DNA of 64,000 nucleotides from an uncultured Hyphomicrobiales bacterium (lineage in GTDB: Bacteria; Bacteroidota; Ignavibacteria; Kapaibacteriales; UBA2268): NCBI GenBank assembly GCA_964524325.1, contig CAZGCT010000001.1:172164-236163 (forward strand), given 5' to 3'. Shown piece after piece: positions 14,030-43,544 of the stretch. The notes under the pieces were generated by a model, which saw only the letters and a list, made by a program, of their open reading frames with translations, was not told the DNA's origin and did no database searches. Position 1 is the first letter of the stretch. The number at the start of each line of letters is the position of its first letter. Made by a program: the position numbers and the translations under genes.

Positions 14030-15643
14030 TTACATAATAGAAAAGTCGATATATGGTTCTTTTAACTCGGCAATGGCATTGACGACAAGTTCTGCTAATC
14101 CACCAACAAATAACCTAGATTTGTCCTTTGCACCATAAAAATCAAAAATATCCCGAATTTGTCCTTTACAATTCGAGCAAGGTGCACAAACATATTTGGG
14201 CATTTCGGGTTCGATTAGTTCATTTTTGAATGCGTCAAGAATTTGCTTGAACTTTTTACGTCCGCTAATGTAATTCTTCCAATCCTGAAAATTGTAAGAA
14301 GACATTATTGCAAAGCCACTGCCTCCTCCACAGCAATAATTATCAACTCCGTGTGGTTCCATCTCTCTAAATTTTGGGGCAATATATTTTAAGACTCTGC
14401 GTTGTGGTTCTACAATTCCCATCATTCTAACTATATTGCACGGGTCATGAAGTGTTACTGGGAAGTAATTTTTTTCAGGGTTGAATTTTATCTTTCCGCC
14501 AAAAACGATTTGCTCAATTAAAGTCATTGCATTAATGGTTTTTATCTCGTTTCCAAAGATTCTTTCAGCAATTATTCCTAAAGATTTGGATTCGTGTCCG
14601 CATTCTCCCATGATAATTGCTTTCACTCCTAATTTTTTTGCAATTTCAAAATGTTTGTGTGCAATTCTAGTAAATTGGATATCGTCGTACCAAACTCCAT
14701 AATTAACACCGTCGTAACCAATTAGCTCACTTGATAAAGTCCAACTTATGCCTGCAGCATTTAGCAAAATTGTAAATGCAGCTGGATTTTCGGGCCAAGA
14801 CAAAAATTCACCTGCATTGTGCAAGAGTAGGTAATCTGCCCCGGCAACATCCCAATTAGACTCGATCTTAATTCCAAGTCTATCTGCTAAGTCCTCGTTA
14901 ATAAAACTGACATTGCTTTTAACAACTTCGGGTGACATTCCAGTAGAAGAGCCTTTGGTAAGGTGTTTCACAGTACCTTTTTCGTGCAACTCCTTTGGTG
15001 ATATATCAAATTCTTGGCTAAATAGTTTTCTTATTTCATGGGTAATTAATCCATTATCTATACCTATTGGACAAGTTTGCCCGCAGCGTCGGCAGATTGT
15101 GCATCGGTAGCTTAATTCAACAAGTCGAGATATCAAAGTCCAGTTCAATTCGATATCTCCATGTTGGAACTTCTTAAAAATAAGGCTTCCAGGCTTTACA
15201 TACTTAAAATATAACCTTCTTAGTACCTCTGTCCTATATGTTGGTCTGTATATTTCTGCATGATTACTTGCTTCATAAATTTGGCAGGCATCGTTGCATG
15301 TTTGACACTTTGCACAATGCTCCATAGTTAAGATAAGTGGTTGAAGGAAAGTCCAATTGTTTTCCTTTGAGAAAAGTTTAATTAGGGCAGAAATAAATTT
15401 TTCTACTAGTTCTTGTTCTTCTTTAGGTGTTTTTGGTTTAAGTACTCCGACTGCCATTACTCCGTCTAAAGAATCATCGTAGTTTTGAAGAGTTGGCTCA
15501 CTAAGTTTTTTGAAACCTGGTAGTTCATCCAATTTGTCGTATGGTGGGGGAAGCTTGATACTATCGTTTGGAGAAATTTCACATAATGGTCGTAAATTTG
15601 GATTACTAAAATCTTTAACTTTTATTTTCCTTCTCGCGACCAA
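14030..15643 (-). CDS. dsrK: HdrD/DsrK-like CCG-domain iron-sulfur oxidoreductase
   Basis: There are two 4Fe-4S motifs, CAKCQTCNDAC and CTICRRCGQTCP. A complete CCG domain (C-X34-CC-X47-CAPC) follows. The gene lies immediately downstream of a NarI-like membrane protein and of dsrC. Confidence 0.6.
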   Translation of the reverse strand: MVARRKIKVKDFSNPNLRPLCEISPNDSIKLPPPYDKLDELPGFKKLSEPTLQNYDDSLDGVMAVGVLKPKTPKEEQELVEKFISALIKLFSKENNWTFLQPLILTMEHCAKCQTCNDACQIYEASNHAEIYRPTYRTEVLRRLYFKYVKPGSLIFKKFQHGDIELNWTLISRLVELSYRCTICRRCGQTCPIGIDNGLITHEIRKLFSQEFDISPKELHEKGTVKHLTKGSSTGMSPEVVKSNVSFINEDLADRLGIKIESNWDVAGADYLLLHNAGEFLSWPENPAAFTILLNAAGISWTLSSELIGYDGVNYGVWYDDIQFTRIAHKHFEIAKKLGVKAIIMGECGHESKSLGIIAERIFGNEIKTINAMTLIEQIVFGGKIKFNPEKNYFPVTLHDPCNIVRMMGIVEPQRRVLKYIAPKFREMEPHGVDNYCCGGGSGFAIMSSYNFQDWKNYISGRKKFKQILDAFKNELIEPEMPKYVCAPCSNCKGQIRDIFDFYGAKDKSRLFVGGLAELVVNAIAELKEPYIDFSIM

Positions 15644-15647
15644 TTTT

Positions 15648-16598
15648 CTATCCTTTGTTTTGAATTTGTGTTGTTGTTATTATGAGCCAAGTTTTCCGAC
15701 CATCGGAGCCAATATGAGGTGCTGACCATTGAACTGGTAAATTAAGTTGTTCGTTAAGCCTCTTGCGAATATGCTTATTTGAAATATTTGGTTCGTCGTC
15801 CCATCTGACTTTGTGATATGTGAAGTACTTCATGTAGAAATGTGTCATGTGAGTGAATGGCAAGTAGAACATAAAAAAGGAGAGAAGATAAAAATGTACA
15901 TTTCCAATTAGAGGTGTATTTTTTATTAATGATAAGTTCAAGAATCCTTGGTAAAAGCCAATTATTTCAACTACTGCATTTTTTGAAGAAAGCAACCAAA
16001 TTAATGTTGTAGCATAAAGCGAACCAATCAAAATAATATTGAAATAGTGGCTAAAACTTGAAAATAATCTCAAGTTTTCATCGAAAATTCTTTTAAAAAG
16101 CAAAACAATAGATCCCAAAATTCCTAAAAAAGTGATTAACCAAAGTAAATAATTGAGAAAAAGAATGTATTTATGTGATTGAGTTTTACCTGCGGAGGGA
16201 TACAATCCCACAAGTAAATAGACTAATATTAGTAATGTGAAGACTATGTAAAGGTACATTGCGTAATGAAAAGGTGCCGAACCAAACCACAAAGAACGAT
16301 TGTGTTTCCACACTCCTTTTAATAAGAAAATTTCTTGAAGCATTGACCATAGTTTATGTATTTTTCCGTTTTTAATAAGTTCTGCCCTAAAATCAAGCTC
16401 ATCTGGGTTAGAACCAACATTCTTGGAATCAATCTTTTTGTTGGGTATAGGGTAAAGCTCCCAACGAAGATGCACTGGAGATTTAGCAATTCTAATTCCC
16501 TTTGCAAGAGCAATTGTAATAAATGTCAAAAAACTAAAATAAAAAACAAGATGAAGTAATTCCATAATCTGTACAATTTTTCCGAAAATTAACTCCAA
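15648..16598 (-). CDS. dsrM: NarI-like membrane-bound cytochrome b (DsrM/HdrE-like)
   Basis: The protein has about six TM helices with conserved His in the helices. It shows the nitrate-reductase gamma-like architecture. It lies 4 nt upstream of the CCG protein. Confidence 0.5.
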   Translation of the reverse strand: MELIFGKIVQIMELLHLVFYFSFLTFITIALAKGIRIAKSPVHLRWELYPIPNKKIDSKNVGSNPDELDFRAELIKNGKIHKLWSMLQEIFLLKGVWKHNRSLWFGSAPFHYAMYLYIVFTLLILVYLLVGLYPSAGKTQSHKYILFLNYLLWLITFLGILGSIVLLFKRIFDENLRLFSSFSHYFNIILIGSLYATTLIWLLSSKNAVVEIIGFYQGFLNLSLIKNTPLIGNVHFYLLSFFMFYLPFTHMTHFYMKYFTYHKVRWDDEPNISNKHIRKRLNEQLNLPVQWSAPHIGSDGRKTWLIITTTQIQNKG

Positions 16599-16636
16599 AA
16601 GTAATAAAAACTAAAATAAAGAAGTTTAGATAAAAC

Positions 16637-16678
16637 AAAACCTTGAACAAAGCGAAGTTATTCCTTGTTCAAGGTTTT
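16637..16678 (-). terminator. perfect 14-bp hairpin (AAAACCTTGAACAA / TTGTTCAAGGTTTT, 14-nt loop) followed on the minus strand by a U-rich tract, between dsrC and dsrM
   Basis: Read directly from the sequence. The downstream minus-strand sequence is GTTTTATCTAAACTTCTTTATTTTAG. Confidence 0.5.
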
Positions 16679-16691
16679 TAACAAAGATAAA

Positions 16692-17009
16692 TTATACACA
16701 ACCAGTTGGCTTTGTAAGCCCCGCTACTTTGCAAGCTCCTTTTGCAGGTCCGGAGGGAAATAGGTCGTAAATTTGTTTTAATGTGAAGCCAGTTTCTTTG
16801 CACAATTTACGAATCATCGGTGCAATACCATACTGTTTGTAATAGTTTCGTAAATAATTAATTACTTTCCAATGTTCGGCTGTAAGTTCCGAAACTCCTT
16901 CTGTAGTCGCAAGTGCAACAGCAACCCTTTCGTTCCATTCTTCTGGATTAGCCAAAAAACCTTCTTCATCAACTTCAATCTTAATTTCATTCCACTCGAA
17001 TACTGGCAT
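16692..17009 (-). CDS. dsrC: DsrC-family sulfur-relay/substrate protein with both conserved C-terminal cysteines
   Basis: The protein is 105 aa. The C-terminus, GACKVAGLTKPTGCV, shows CysB-X10-CysA-V as in bona fide DsrC. TusE carries only the final Cys. Confidence 0.8.
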   Translation of the reverse strand: MPVFEWNEIKIEVDEEGFLANPEEWNERVAVALATTEGVSELTAEHWKVINYLRNYYKQYGIAPMIRKLCKETGFTLKQIYDLFPSGPAKGACKVAGLTKPTGCV

Positions 17010-17383
17010 TTTTATACCTTAGCAAAATTGTACATAACACAAAACCTACAAGATACTTTATAATTCATTTAAAAAAAATTCAAAATTAATTGTTTTGAGA
17101 TTCATTTCTATAAAGAATAATATTTATTAATTTTTCTTTTAATAATCTTCAAAGCTTTTGTCCCTTTCTTGTTATTTTTTGTAATTTAGCTTGTAGTAAT
17201 AATTTCTTGATAAAGTTAAATTTCTGGTGTTTTGGTTATAAAAAAGCCAATACCATTCATAAGTTTCCAACACAGGGTTTCTTCTAACTTATCCCTATCC
17301 TGCAAAATTTTGTCATTTATCTTAATCGTATTTAAACTCAAATAGTACCATCGCGAAGTTTTGAAAAGATTCTAAACAACACA

Positions 17384-17809
17384 TTACATATTCATTCCTT
17401 TGCGAATATTTTCTATTTCTTCGAGAAGGTTGTCATGTTTAGTTTCATCGTAAAGTAAATACTCCAATAAATACTTAACAATTGGAGAGGTGAGATCTTG
17501 TAAGGCTTCTTTTGCAATAGCAATTGTTTTCTTTTCTACCTCATTGTGTTCTTCCACAAGCGACCAAATGTTCGATATTTCTTCAGTAAAAAGTGTAATA
17601 GGCTGTTTTTCATAATTATCGATGATAAGCTGTTGAACACGGCGATGCATCACAGAGTCCTGGCGTATTATTTCCATTACTAAGTGGACTAATGGGTTGT
17701 CCGTTTTCTTGATAATTTCGGTAGTATTTCTAATGGTGGCATCCTCGATTTTCTGCCAATCTTTTAAAATTTCAACTAGTTTTTCGATGTTACCTTTTTC
17801 TGTTTCCAT
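17384..17809 (-). CDS. hypothetical acidic helical protein
   Basis: A 141-aa ORF lies between sat and dsrC on the same strand. No motif was recognised. Confidence 0.45.
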   Translation of the reverse strand: METEKGNIEKLVEILKDWQKIEDATIRNTTEIIKKTDNPLVHLVMEIIRQDSVMHRRVQQLIIDNYEKQPITLFTEEISNIWSLVEEHNEVEKKTIAIAKEALQDLTSPIVKYLLEYLLYDETKHDNLLEEIENIRKGMNM

Positions 17810-17965
17810 TTACACTCCAAAAATTTTACTAAAAATTAATATTTTTGTTACGAATTTACAACTTTTATTGAATATCTTGAAATTCTTGCTGCTTTTGTCA
17901 TCAATAAACTTTTTTAATTAAGTTTGTTGCTGCTATTTAAATACTTAGAACTAAACTTAAAACTG

Positions 17966-17987
17966 CTTTGTTTAGTTGAAAACAAAG
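17966..17987 (-). terminator. 8-bp hairpin (CTTTGTTT / AAACAAAG) with a T-rich tail downstream of sat
   Basis: An inverted repeat lies about 130 nt after the sat stop. On the minus strand it is followed by CAGTTTTAAGTTTAG. Confidence 0.35.
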
Positions 17988-18117
17988 TGGAGGATTTAAT
18001 CCAAGTTAATAAATTGGCAAATGGAACTTTCGACAAGTCAAGATTGTTTTTGGTTTTGCTAAAATAAGCTATTGAAAGAATTAACATTTCAAATTTGTGG
18101 GTTTAAGCATGTTTCTA

Positions 18118-19305
18118 TTAATAGGTTTCTTTAAAGCCAGAATAATATTCTCTCAATATAGCAATTACTTCTGGGCGTGAAAATTCTTTAGGTACGTCTT
18201 GCCCCTCGGTTAAAGCTTTTCGTAGCATTGTCCCACTTAAAAGTAGTCTGTATTCTTTTGAATGAGGGCAAGTTTTCATAGATACCATACCATCGCACTT
18301 AAAGCAATAAAATGTCCAATCTGTTTTAAGTGGTTTACAAAGGAGTGCACCATCCCATAGCTCGTCGAATATCTCTTGTGCTTCAAAAGGTCCATAATAA
18401 TTCCCAACACCAGCGTAATCGCGACCAACAATTATGTGTGTGCAGCCATAGTTTTGGCGGATGATTGCATGCAACAATGCTTCTCTTGGCCCAGCATATC
18501 TCATATCCAAATGATGACCTCCGATGAGAACCGAGTCCTTGACAAAGTAATTTTTTACAAGTGCATCTATACAACGCAATCTAACATCGGTAGGAATGTC
18601 GCCAGGCTTTATTTTTCCAACTAATTGGTGGATATAAATTCCATCACTGACTTCTAAAGCAATTTTTGCAAGATATTCGTGCGACCGGTGCATTGGGTTT
18701 CGAACTTGCATGGCAGCTATAGTTTTCCAACCTCGCTCAGCGAAAATTTGTCTTGATTCCTCAGGTCTTTGATAAATGCCATTGTAATGTATAGGGAAGA
18801 ATCCTTCGCTTAACACTTTTACTGGGCCTGCGAGATTAATTTCGCCTTGTTCCATAACCATCTTTGCACCAGGATGTTCGAAATCTGTTGTTTTGAAGAC
18901 ATTCTTGCATTCAAGTTCTTTTGATATTTTGTATTTCTCTTCTACTTTCATAGTTGCTATAATTTCTCCGTGTTCATCGGAATATAGAGCTATTTGGTCT
19001 CCAATTCTAATTTTACTTGCAATTTCCTTTTCAGTTGATAAAGTAATTGGAATAGGCCAGAATAACCCATTCTTACTTGGCATTTTCATTTCTTTGCAAA
19101 CACTCTTCCAATCGTCATAACCCATAAAACCAGTAAGTGGTGTGTACCCCCCAATTCCCATCATGATTAAATCGTTGCATTCTCGGCTTGTAATGCTTAT
19201 TTTCACTAACTTTTCAGCTTTCTTTTTTTCTTCCAAAAGTTCTTCGCCTTCAAGGAGATGTTTAATAAGTGCTGGGCTGCCGTGGGGGCTGATTAATTTT
19301 GACAT
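18118..19305 (-). CDS. sat: sulfate adenylyltransferase (ATP sulfurylase)
   Basis: The motifs [13 protein letters not shown] and VGRDYAGVG are diagnostic of the homo-oligomeric ATP sulfurylase family. The length is about 395 aa. Confidence 0.85.
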
Positions 19306-30723: not shown

Positions 30724-31199
30724 CAAGCTTTTTTTACCATGCTACTTACTTGAAGTTAAACTCTATTTTTCAATTTTAGTTGAATATCTTTAATTTAGTT
30801 TTTTTTTCACATCAAAACTCTTTGAATATCAGCAAAGATGTTCATTTTTACCCATAATCCAAATTTTTTGAATTTATCATTTTTTTCATAAATATCCTAA
30901 AAGTATGGATAACTTTGTAATGTGGCCTATTTACACATATTACTATGGCTGAAATAATGGTAGGGAAAGAGAATTAAGCTCAAAACTCTTTGCTAAATTC
31001 CTTTTAATAAAACAATGTTAGGCTAAAGAAATAACAAAAAATAGGAAATATTAAAGAATCAAAAATTGGAAATTGGTCGGTTGGCAGCGTAGGTTTTAAA
31101 ATAATCACCACATTAGATTTTAAATGGGGGGAGGTTGGAATAATTAATCAATTAATTGCAGATTCATGTGAAATTTTTTTCTCAAAAATAAATGATAAA

Positions 31200-31241
31200 G
31201 AAGTGAACCAAGGTTAGTTCCTCAGTTCACTTCCTTTTTTT
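31200..31241 (+). terminator. bidirectional intrinsic terminator (GAAGTGAAC-16 nt-GTTCACTTC + T7) flanked by an A-run on the other side
   Basis: A 9-bp stem is followed by TTTTTTT on the plus strand. On the minus strand it lies directly after the lat stop and has a T-rich tail. Confidence 0.6.
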
Positions 31242-34393: not shown

Positions 34394-34426
34394 AAATGCC
34401 CACGTTTTCGTGGGCATTTTTTTTTT
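34394..34426 (+). terminator. intrinsic terminator AAATGCCCACG-TTTT-CGTGGGCATTT followed by T10
   Basis: A perfect 11-bp stem, a 4-nt loop and a long T-run lie immediately after the stop of the 33015-34376 gene. Confidence 0.8.
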
Positions 34427-41942: not shown

Positions 41943-43544
41943 TTGAAAGATATGAGATGGATTGTAATTTCTCTTGCCATTTTAAGCGGCGTCGCTGTTG
42001 TTGTCCTCAACCTTATTAGTCCTAAAGAAATATTACCTACAAAGTTAATGCAATTGAGGGAAAAGTATTCCTCTAAAAAGTTCGAAGCTGGGTACAAACG
42101 TGTCGACCACTCAAAATTTGCTATTCTCCAACAAAATTTCGAAACACCACAAGAGGTTACCAAAGCCTGCATTTCGTGCCACAATAATACTGCAAAAGAT
42201 ATTATGAATGGTAACCATTGGAATTGGGAAAGAGTTGATTACATTAAAGGCAAAGGAATTGTGTATCTTGGGAAAAGAAATGCAATCAATAATTATTGCT
42301 TGAGTGTTGTAAATAGCGAAAAGCTTTGTGCAAAATGCCACATTGGATTCGGAATTGACCATACTGGTCGTGGTTTTACCGATTCAACGAATATTGATTG
42401 CCTAATATGCCATGATAATACTGGATCATATGCAAAAGCTTCAGGGGAAGCTGGTGCACCGTCTCCAAATGTCAATTTCAATTTTGTTGCTCAAAATGTA
42501 GGCAAACCACAGAATGTAAATTGTGGTTCATGTCATTTCTTTGGTGGGGGTGGGAACAACGTAAAGCACGGCGACTTAGAAGTGTCATTGTTGGAGGCTA
42601 CAAATGAAGTTGATGTACATATGGGTATCGATGGATTTAATTTGCAATGTATTGATTGCCATACTACTCATAGGCATAATATATCGGGGAAATTGTATTC
42701 ATTGTCTTCAATGAATACAAATAGAGTTGAATGTGAACAATGCCATACCGCTACACCTCACACAAAAGGGATTTTAAACGAGCATACATTGAAAGTAGCT
42801 TGCCAGACTTGTCACATACCTAAATATGCAACAATGAAACCAACTAAATTATCTTGGGATTGGAGCGAAGCTGGAAAACTTGTAGATGGTAAACCGATAA
42901 AACTTAAAGATTCCCTTGGTAATGAAATTTATACATCCCAGAAAGGTAGGTTTACTTGGGGCAACAATGTACGACCCGATTACATTTGGTTCAACGGAAC
43001 TAGTAGCCATTACCTTGCTGGAGACAAGATTCAAGATACTTCGAAACCATTGGTGCTCAATCAATTATTTGGTACATTCGACGACCCAAGTTCAAAAATT
43101 TATCCAGTGAAAATTCATTATGGCAAGCAGCCATTCGACCCGATTAACAAAATACTAATTCAGCCAAAACTTTATGGTGAGAAGTCCGGCGAAGGTGCCT
43201 TTTGGGTTGATTTCGATTGGAAAACTTCTTCAAAAATTGGTATGCAAACTCTCGATTTACCTTTCAGTGGTGAAATTTCTTTCATTCCAACTATTATGTA
43301 TTGGCCCTTAAATCATTTGGTTGTTAAAAAAGAAAAATCTGTGCAGTGTATAGAATGCCATACCAAAAACAGCTCTCGCCTTGCTGGACTTCAAGGTCTT
43401 TACTTGCCCGGGAGGGATAATAGCGATTTGGTTGACTACGGTGGTTTAATATTAATAATTTTAGTGATTCTTTTGGTTGTGATCCACTCTTCATTTAGGA
43501 TTTATTTTTATTTTAAAAATAAAAAAGAGGTTCAAAATGGGTAG
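41943..43544 (+). CDS. membrane-anchored octaheme c-type cytochrome (OTR/HAO-like superfamily)
   Basis: There are eight CxxCH motifs: CISCH, CAKCH, CLICH, CGSCH, CIDCH, CEQCH, CQTCH and CIECH. A hydrophobic segment sits at each end. No CxxCK motif is present. Confidence 0.8.
   Translation: MKDMRWIVISLAILSGVAVVVLNLISPKEILPTKLMQLREKYSSKKFEAGYKRVDHSKFAILQQNFETPQEVTKACISCHNNTAKDIMNGNHWNWERVDYIKGKGIVYLGKRNAINNYCLSVVNSEKLCAKCHIGFGIDHTGRGFTDSTNIDCLICHDNTGSYAKASGEAGAPSPNVNFNFVAQNVGKPQNVNCGSCHFFGGGGNNVKHGDLEVSLLEATNEVDVHMGIDGFNLQCIDCHTTHRHNISGKLYSLSSMNTNRVECEQCHTATPHTKGILNEHTLKVACQTCHIPKYATMKPTKLSWDWSEAGKLVDGKPIKLKDSLGNEIYTSQKGRFTWGNNVRPDYIWFNGTSSHYLAGDKIQDTSKPLVLNQLFGTFDDPSSKIYPVKIHYGKQPFDPINKILIQPKLYGEKSGEGAFWVDFDWKTSSKIGMQTLDLPFSGEISFIPTIMYWPLNHLVVKKEKSVQCIECHTKNSSRLAGLQGLYLPGRDNSDLVDYGGLILIILVILLVVIHSSFRIYFYFKNKKEVQNG

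Follow-up and report, generated by a model that had tools for sequence, protein, structure and literature searches.

Stem-loops that lie between cistrons can give the segments of an operon mRNA different stabilities, as in the puf operon of Rhodobacter and the malEFG/REP system of Escherichia coli. Canonical intrinsic terminators, including the bidirectional form built from an A-tract, a stem, and a U-tract, likewise place a sense-strand stem-loop after a stop codon, with an A-tract upstream and a U-tract downstream, and the hairpin described here shares all of these elements. In Desulfovibrio vulgaris, dsrC (dsvC) is highly and constitutively expressed (PMC6470260, PMC2685097), which documents the high DsrC expression assumed when the hairpin was first annotated; its regulation is separate from that of dsrAB (PMC6470260, citing Karkhoff-Schweizer 1993; PMC2685097). 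The Kapabacterium ‘Ca. Thermonerobacter’ carries a dsrM-2/dsrK-2 pair after dsrC, in the order dsrL-dsrC-dsrM2-dsrK2 (PMC6338057); the supplements of that study contain no per-gene values for the dsrC and dsrM2/K2 transcripts of this organism.

The 64-kb stretch of DNA that we analyzed (the window; GC content ≈33%) matches the dsrC-dsrM-dsrK part of the Kapabacteria order (PMC6338057). The names of the sources of its DsrM homologs put the organism among Kapaibacteriota, Ignavibacteria, or Bacteroidota. Like its D. vulgaris counterpart, the dsrC gene of the window appears to be a highly expressed unit of its own, with a strongly conserved upstream region and a 3′ hairpin. Unlike that counterpart, it lies directly upstream of dsrMK-like genes, without adjacent dsrAB or dsrL. 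The features of the region are as follows.

17010–17124, minus strand: dsrC upstream region, presumed promoter plus 5′ UTR, containing TAATTTTG at 17081–17088
16692–17009, minus strand: dsrC, 105 aa, with two conserved C-terminal cysteines
16679–16691, minus strand: linker from the dsrC stop to the stem, 13 nt, including one A of the A-tract beyond the stem and a TCTTTG common to relatives
16637–16678, minus strand: RNA stem-loop, 5′ arm 16678–16663, loop 16662–16653, 3′ arm 16652–16637
16626–16636, minus strand: U-rich tail GUUUUAUCUAA, which joined with the last four U's of the stem gives UUUUGUUUUAU
16596–16603, minus strand: candidate Bacteroidota-type −7 box TACTTTTG, a perfect match, downstream of the hairpin and 30 nt before the dsrM ATG
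16584–16591, minus strand: second −7-like box TAATTTTC, 18 nt before the ATG, aligning with the TAGTTTTG/CAGTTTTG block of clade B
15648–16565, minus strand: dsrM-like gene for a DsrM-2 type membrane cytochrome b (NarI-type), with a conserved ATG at 16565
14030–15643, minus strand: dsrK-like gene for an HdrD-type Fe-S/CCG protein, below the NCBIfam DsrK cut-off

By its sequence, the gene upstream of the hairpin is a bona fide dsrC: the product matches Pfam PF04358 at 7.5e-40 and TIGR03342 with 122 bits against a cut-off of 53.5, and both cysteines, spaced by 10 residues, lie in the C-terminus (...GACKVAGLTKPTGCV). Strong purifying selection still acts on the gene, whose product differs by one amino acid from that of L081, the closest relative (88% DsrM identity), and is 90% identical to clade B. 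The initial annotation named the gene on the other side dsrM. The two genes there encode a DsrM/DsrK-like pair that corresponds to the DsrM-2/DsrK-2 paralogs of Kapabacteria (PMC6338057), but both fall under the NCBIfam equivalog cut-offs (24.5 vs 300 for DsrM and 297 vs 400 for DsrK). The spacer length of 93 nt given at the outset applies only if dsrM begins at the TTG at 16598, as in public gene calls (316 aa). The conserved ATG at 16565 gives 305 aa, and we place the start there in view of an in-frame stop further upstream in L081 and of homolog lengths of 305–309 aa; the spacer is then 126 nt (16566–16691), of which 71 nt separate the hairpin from dsrM. DsrM diverges much faster than its neighbors (61% identity to clade B, compared with 90% for DsrC and 80% for DsrK), and between the window and L081 codon positions 1 and 2 are 92.5% and 96.7% identical in dsrM and 99–100% identical in dsrC.

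The locus as a whole is reduced. In the clade-B locus L164 (1–12536), the order is aprA, two hypothetical genes, qmoC-like, dsrA, dsrB, dsrD, dsrN, hyp145, dsrL, dsrC, dsrM, and dsrK, and downstream of dsrK it carries polysaccharide, RadC, and aldehyde dehydrogenase genes, as does the window. Only gmk, sat, orf141, dsrC, dsrM, and dsrK are found at the locus in the window (14030–19305) and in L081, L082, and L083. By tblastn, none of aprA, qmoC-like, dsrA, dsrB, dsrD, dsrN, and dsrL was detected within the 64-kb window, and no dsrL remnant was found in the 374-nt gap between orf141 and dsrC. The retention of dsrC, dsrMK, and sat without dsrAB or aprA at a syntenic locus raises the question of what role DsrC and DsrMK play in this lineage, and we regard this genomic context as more consequential than the hairpin itself. 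The conserved hypothetical gene orf141 (17384–17809, minus strand) adjoins dsr genes in 22 related loci at 53–79% identity; it matches no Pfam or NCBIfam family, and its only PDB similarity, to the uncharacterized MJ0754, is weak (E = 0.017).

The inverted repeat between dsrC and dsrM lies exactly where it was first reported, at 16637–16678, and its arms, AAAACCTTGAACAA (16637–16650) and TTGTTCAAGGTTTT (16665–16678), are 100% complementary across an N14 segment. Because the neighboring genes are all on the minus strand, the relevant RNA is the reverse complement, which reads UAA(stop)-N13-AAAACCUUGAACAAGG-AAUAACUUCG-CUUUGUUCAAGGUUUU-GUUUUAUCU, where AAUAACUUCG is the segment between the 14-nt arms and GUUUUAUCU follows directly 3′ of the stem. 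In the ViennaRNA fold, a G·U and a G-C pair extend the 14 perfect Watson–Crick pairs to a 16-bp stem with a 10-nt loop; six of the 16 pairs are G-C, and the base of the stem consists of A:U pairs. The in silico folding proposed earlier thus returns a stable stem, at −18.8 kcal/mol for the isolated hairpin and −19.9 kcal/mol in a 67-nt context (z = −5.35, equalled by 0 of 200 dinucleotide shuffles), and provides the stable sense-strand RNA stem-loop expected of a terminator. No other perfect inverted repeat of at least 14 bp with a loop of at most 20 nt occurs across the window, and any such repeat (at least 14 bp, short loop) appeared in only two of 60 first-order Markov shuffles of it. The spacer is identical in two further, independent assemblies of the same organism (L082 and L083), so the hairpin is not an assembly artifact. 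The stem-loop 3′ of dsrC is real and non-random.

Membership in a larger family was also considered. Elsewhere in the window the stem sequence has no match at 0 mismatches apart from its own two arms, matches with two mismatches are at chance level, and the sequence is absent from the 81 related loci compared. A REP/BIME-like repeat family was ruled out, since there are no multiple palindrome copies in the window or the 81 loci. Rfam 15 gave no match at gathering thresholds over the whole window and chance-level matches only (E > 2) in a permissive scan of 16400–17500; after both scans, identity with a curated RNA family was rejected. A predicted long-range helix that would pair the dsrM leader with the region of the dsrC stop was treated as chance, its sequence being unconserved in L081.

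The stem begins 13 nt 3′ of the dsrC stop on the sense strand, where a transcription unit may end, although the next gene, co-oriented, follows 71 nt further on. An A5 run on the upstream side, with one A beyond the stem, mirrors the U-tract. The U-rich stretch that the initial annotation described on the coding strand after the hairpin is also present, and it reads UUUUGUUUUAU when the four terminal A:U pairs of the stem are opened. We scored tails with our own implementation of the d'Aubenton-Carafa/TransTermHP decay weighting. Against an AT-rich background (2.4 on average, with the 99th percentile at 4.4), the hairpin scores 5.2 with the four A:U pairs opened, above that percentile, and 3.3 with the full 16-bp stem; the score with the pairs opened agrees with the U-rich tract of ≈7–9 nt expected immediately 3′ of a terminator stem. 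Compared with the E. coli and Bacillus subtilis archetype, the stem (16 bp) and loop (10 nt) are longer and the GC content is lower, and, unlike in canonical terminators, some of the U-tract takes part in pairing at the base of the stem.

A built-in consensus terminator scan allows loops of up to 8 nt and so missed this hairpin; the scan is uninformative because its overall count equals the shuffle expectation. Among ≈28 sizeable intergenic gaps in the window there are three strong gene-end hairpins (−15 kcal/mol or better), the other two lying at 31197–31236 and 34394–34419. All three are flanked by A/U tracts, and in this respect the dsrC hairpin fits the local style of terminator. No hairpin follows dsrK, sat, or orf141 in the window, and the same is true of most other intergenic gaps. 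The element at 34394–34419 is a textbook bidirectional terminator, AAAUGCCCACG-UUUU-CGUGGGCAUUU, with A and U runs on its flanks between convergent genes; that at 31197–31236 is a 17-bp hairpin 3′ of a class-III aminotransferase gene.

We consider it somewhat better than an even chance (probability ≈0.55) that the dsrC 3′ hairpin is a Rho-independent terminator and 3′-end stabilizer that uncouples dsrC from dsrMK. RNA polymerase moving along the minus strand would make the 16-bp hairpin and then the U-rich UUUUGUUUUAU, and most transcripts would be released ≈55–65 nt past the dsrC stop codon; the structure, the position, and the tail are observed, and termination and its efficiency are our inference. 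The same hairpin would shield the short dsrC mRNA from 3′-to-5′ exonucleases. The gene for DsrC, a small and highly expressed sulfur carrier, would in this way be uncoupled from the membrane complex genes dsrM and dsrK, whose lower expression could come from residual read-through, from a separate promoter in the 71-nt gap, or from both. Against termination stand the long 10-nt loop, the moderately GC-rich stem, and its A:U base. The roles of terminator and stabilizer are not mutually exclusive, and the hairpin is probably functional, although not a new kind of element.

The initial annotation had named absence of the hairpin from orthologous loci as grounds for abandoning its proposal, and we find instead that the structure recurs there. 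A scan of genome collections with a DsrM alignment returned 80 loci, and in 27 of these dsrC immediately precedes dsrM in the same orientation. One of the 27 was left out, its 24-nt spacer being too short, and with the window and L081 this gave 28 analyzable loci. With significance defined as p ≤ 0.02 versus shuffles, a hairpin is present in all 11 of the closest loci, where it starts 9–18 nt past the dsrC stop at −10 to −27 kcal/mol, and in 19 of the 28 overall, at offsets of up to 56 nt. Stems vary by lineage, for example, CAAGGAAUC, GUGGAGAACCC (L003/L006), and GGCUUCCUG (L008/L009), with a CAAGGAAU core common to the window, L081, and L001/4/5/7. Conservation applies to the presence of a folded structure at this position and not to sequence, since the stems themselves vary from one lineage to another. 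Several distant relatives (L010, L017, L024, L025, L085, and L086) have textbook terminators with a GC stem and a U-run after dsrC. The sense fold is more stable than the antisense fold in 15 of 19 non-tied hairpins, a biased comparison in that the hairpins were ascertained on the sense strand.

Within the window's own clade, the genome collections searched contain only L081 and the identical assemblies L082 and L083, and a protein scan of metagenomes contributed no more than a few close loci. The L081 hairpin differs from that of the window at 7 of 42 positions, with changes in one arm and no pairwise compensation. Its context fold, which recruits the A-tract and U-tract, is nonetheless at −19.8 kcal/mol, compared with −19.9 kcal/mol in the window. 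The two hairpins are 83% identical as opposed to ≈90% at synonymous sites and thus display no extra conservation, a second point against the terminator reading.

A third point comes from the relatives in clade B (L001–L007) and clade C (L008 and L009), whose homologs of the hairpin exceed it in length and strength (−19 to −27 kcal/mol) but for the most part have no U-tract, with tail scores at background level (1.7–2.8; exceptions are L003 at 4.2 and L006 at 3.1). The 3′ ends of clade-B dsrK, in contrast, have canonical U-tailed terminators, with scores of 4.1–6.3 in the five that were scored (L001, L002, L003, L005, and L006). This difference is our main reason for thinking that the dsrC hairpin may originally have served in stabilization or processing rather than in termination. 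A stabilizing hairpin calls only for a stable 3′ stem-loop, with no need of a U-tract, and that much is found in all 11 closest loci. The principal alternative, which we hold to be appreciably less probable than termination, is that the hairpin is a 3′-end stabilizer or processing barrier within a dsrC-dsrM-dsrK cotranscript. It would block 3′ exonucleases after a downstream endonucleolytic cleavage, and the dsrC segment would outlive the dsrMK segment. The U-less hairpins of the next clade would fit such a stability or processing role at least as well as they fit termination, and two further observations agree with it: a second clade-B hairpin in the spacer (hp2, described below) could be a processing site, and no hairpin follows dsrK in the window. 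The likeness to puf- and malEFG-type stem-loops is that a stable hairpin follows the cistron needed in excess, and the clade-B homologs, being U-less, resemble them further. The window hairpin, however, differs from these systems in that it is not a REP-like repeat and has a U-tail; the U-rich tails of both the window and L081 and the textbook terminators at the same position in several distant relatives argue for termination.

The initial annotation proposed that one promoter upstream of dsrC drives dsrC-dsrM-dsrK and that the DsrC:DsrMK ratio depends solely on a leaky terminator. In favor of this, the genes share an orientation and lie only 126 nt apart, and the weak A:U stem base and long loop are compatible with incomplete termination. 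The 115 nt before the dsrC ATG are ≈96% identical to L081, whereas identity is ≈75% beyond them and 76% in the spacer between dsrC and dsrM; such a pattern suggests that they are likely to be a constrained promoter plus 5′ UTR. The single-promoter model is possible, if somewhat less probable than the stabilizer alternative, but it is weakened by the region downstream of the hairpin, and here the −7 consensus of Bacteroides promoters, TAnnTTTG, is informative. We dropped a sigma-70 promoter scan (58 matches vs 56.6 by chance) in favor of this motif, which is enriched in the window (135 vs 102 expected, a count reached by 0 of 100 shuffles). It ends 10–60 nt upstream in six of the 28 genes with an upstream gap of at least 50 nt (chance ≈5%), and these genes include sat, bshC, a polysaccharide export gene, and dsrM. 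Before dsrM, a perfect TAnnTTTG (16603–16596) and a near-match follow the hairpin at 30 and 18 nt from the ATG, a placement like that of the boxes of sat, bshC, and other genes, and L081 keeps both boxes with one mismatch each. Because TACTTTTG is placed like the box of sat and those of four other genes, separate promoters could set the DsrC:DsrMK ratio. The full TTTG-N18–22-TAnnTTTG pattern is not significantly enriched in the window (8 vs 4.7), and the −7 box of dsrM lacks a good −33 TTTG partner upstream; for these reasons a dsrM promoter is plausible but only inferred, and dsrMK may have a promoter of their own between the hairpin and dsrM.

Throughout the window, TAnnTTTG tends to sit 20–45 nt upstream of start codons. 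Several listed TTG or GTG starts overlap such a box (e.g., 28295, 36745, 41389, and 7220) and are for that reason probably mis-called.

The second hairpin, hp2, is a sequence-conserved, AU-rich hairpin of 19 bp that precedes the dsrM ATG by ≈20 nt in clades B and C (L001–L009, L084, and L096). It has the form AAAAUUGAUUUUUGAAGG-loop-CCUUUAAAAAUCAGUUUU and folds at −18 to −20 kcal/mol (e.g., L004:2940–2981). In a nine-sequence alignment, 94% of the cells pair and seven pairs are changed on both sides, pairing collapses in slid-alignment controls, and the non-Watson–Crick cells comprise 12 G·U and two A·C in the sense orientation. The hairpin overlaps TTTG-N20-TAnnTTTG-like boxes. In L003, L006, and L084, however, both G's of the boxes are changed while compensating changes keep the helix, on which grounds we rejected the idea that hp2 is solely the dsrM promoter; since the helix survives loss of these G's, the structure rather than the promoter boxes seems to be selected. 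Possible roles for hp2 include those of a second terminator, an RNase site, and an operator. No further copies of hp2 turned up in a metagenome search for the exact pattern, and the window and L081 retain only a decayed remnant (16592–16628 in the window). A more ambitious scheme, which we regard as doubtful and less probable than either alternative above, is that these elements form a Kapaibacteria-wide, selected post-transcriptional device. The U-less hairpin and hp2 of clade B would be a processing or attenuation module setting DsrC:DsrMK, collapsed into one canonical terminator in the window lineage, where dsrC would be kept for a DsrAB-independent role.

Less probable still is a chance palindrome or neutral relic without function. 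The rate at which the hairpin region has diverged between the window and L081 is close to that of neutral sites, but a comparable repeat in only two of 60 shuffled windows, the z of −5.35, and the recurrence, with differing sequences, of a hairpin at this position in 19 of 28 loci make this reading very improbable. The weakest candidate is a DNA-level role, in which a dimeric regulator would bind the palindrome as an operator or activator site and so act on the dsrM promoter. It could draw on a perfect 14-bp palindrome centered ≈60–70 bp upstream of the putative dsrM start site and on arms that are themselves quasi-palindromic (CCTTGAACAAGG), but it is made highly improbable by the atypical 28 bp between arm centers, a G·U pair that lengthens the stem in the sense RNA alone, changes without compensation in one arm of L081, and conservation in relatives of position and stability rather than of the arm sequences.

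If the hairpin terminates or stabilizes the dsrC message, it offers a simple route to DsrC in large excess over DsrMK from adjacent genes. By analogy with the high constitutive DsrC expression of model sulfate reducers, such an arrangement would be sensible and not surprising. The hairpin is an ordinary regulatory feature that leaves the understanding of terminators and Dsr systems unchanged; its use lies in operon annotation and in the reading of metatranscriptomes of Kapaibacteria-like bacteria. Elsewhere in the window, a perfect 12-bp palindrome, TTGTATTCATTG-TCTT-CAATGAATACAA, is located at 42693–42720 within the open reading frame at 41943–43544.
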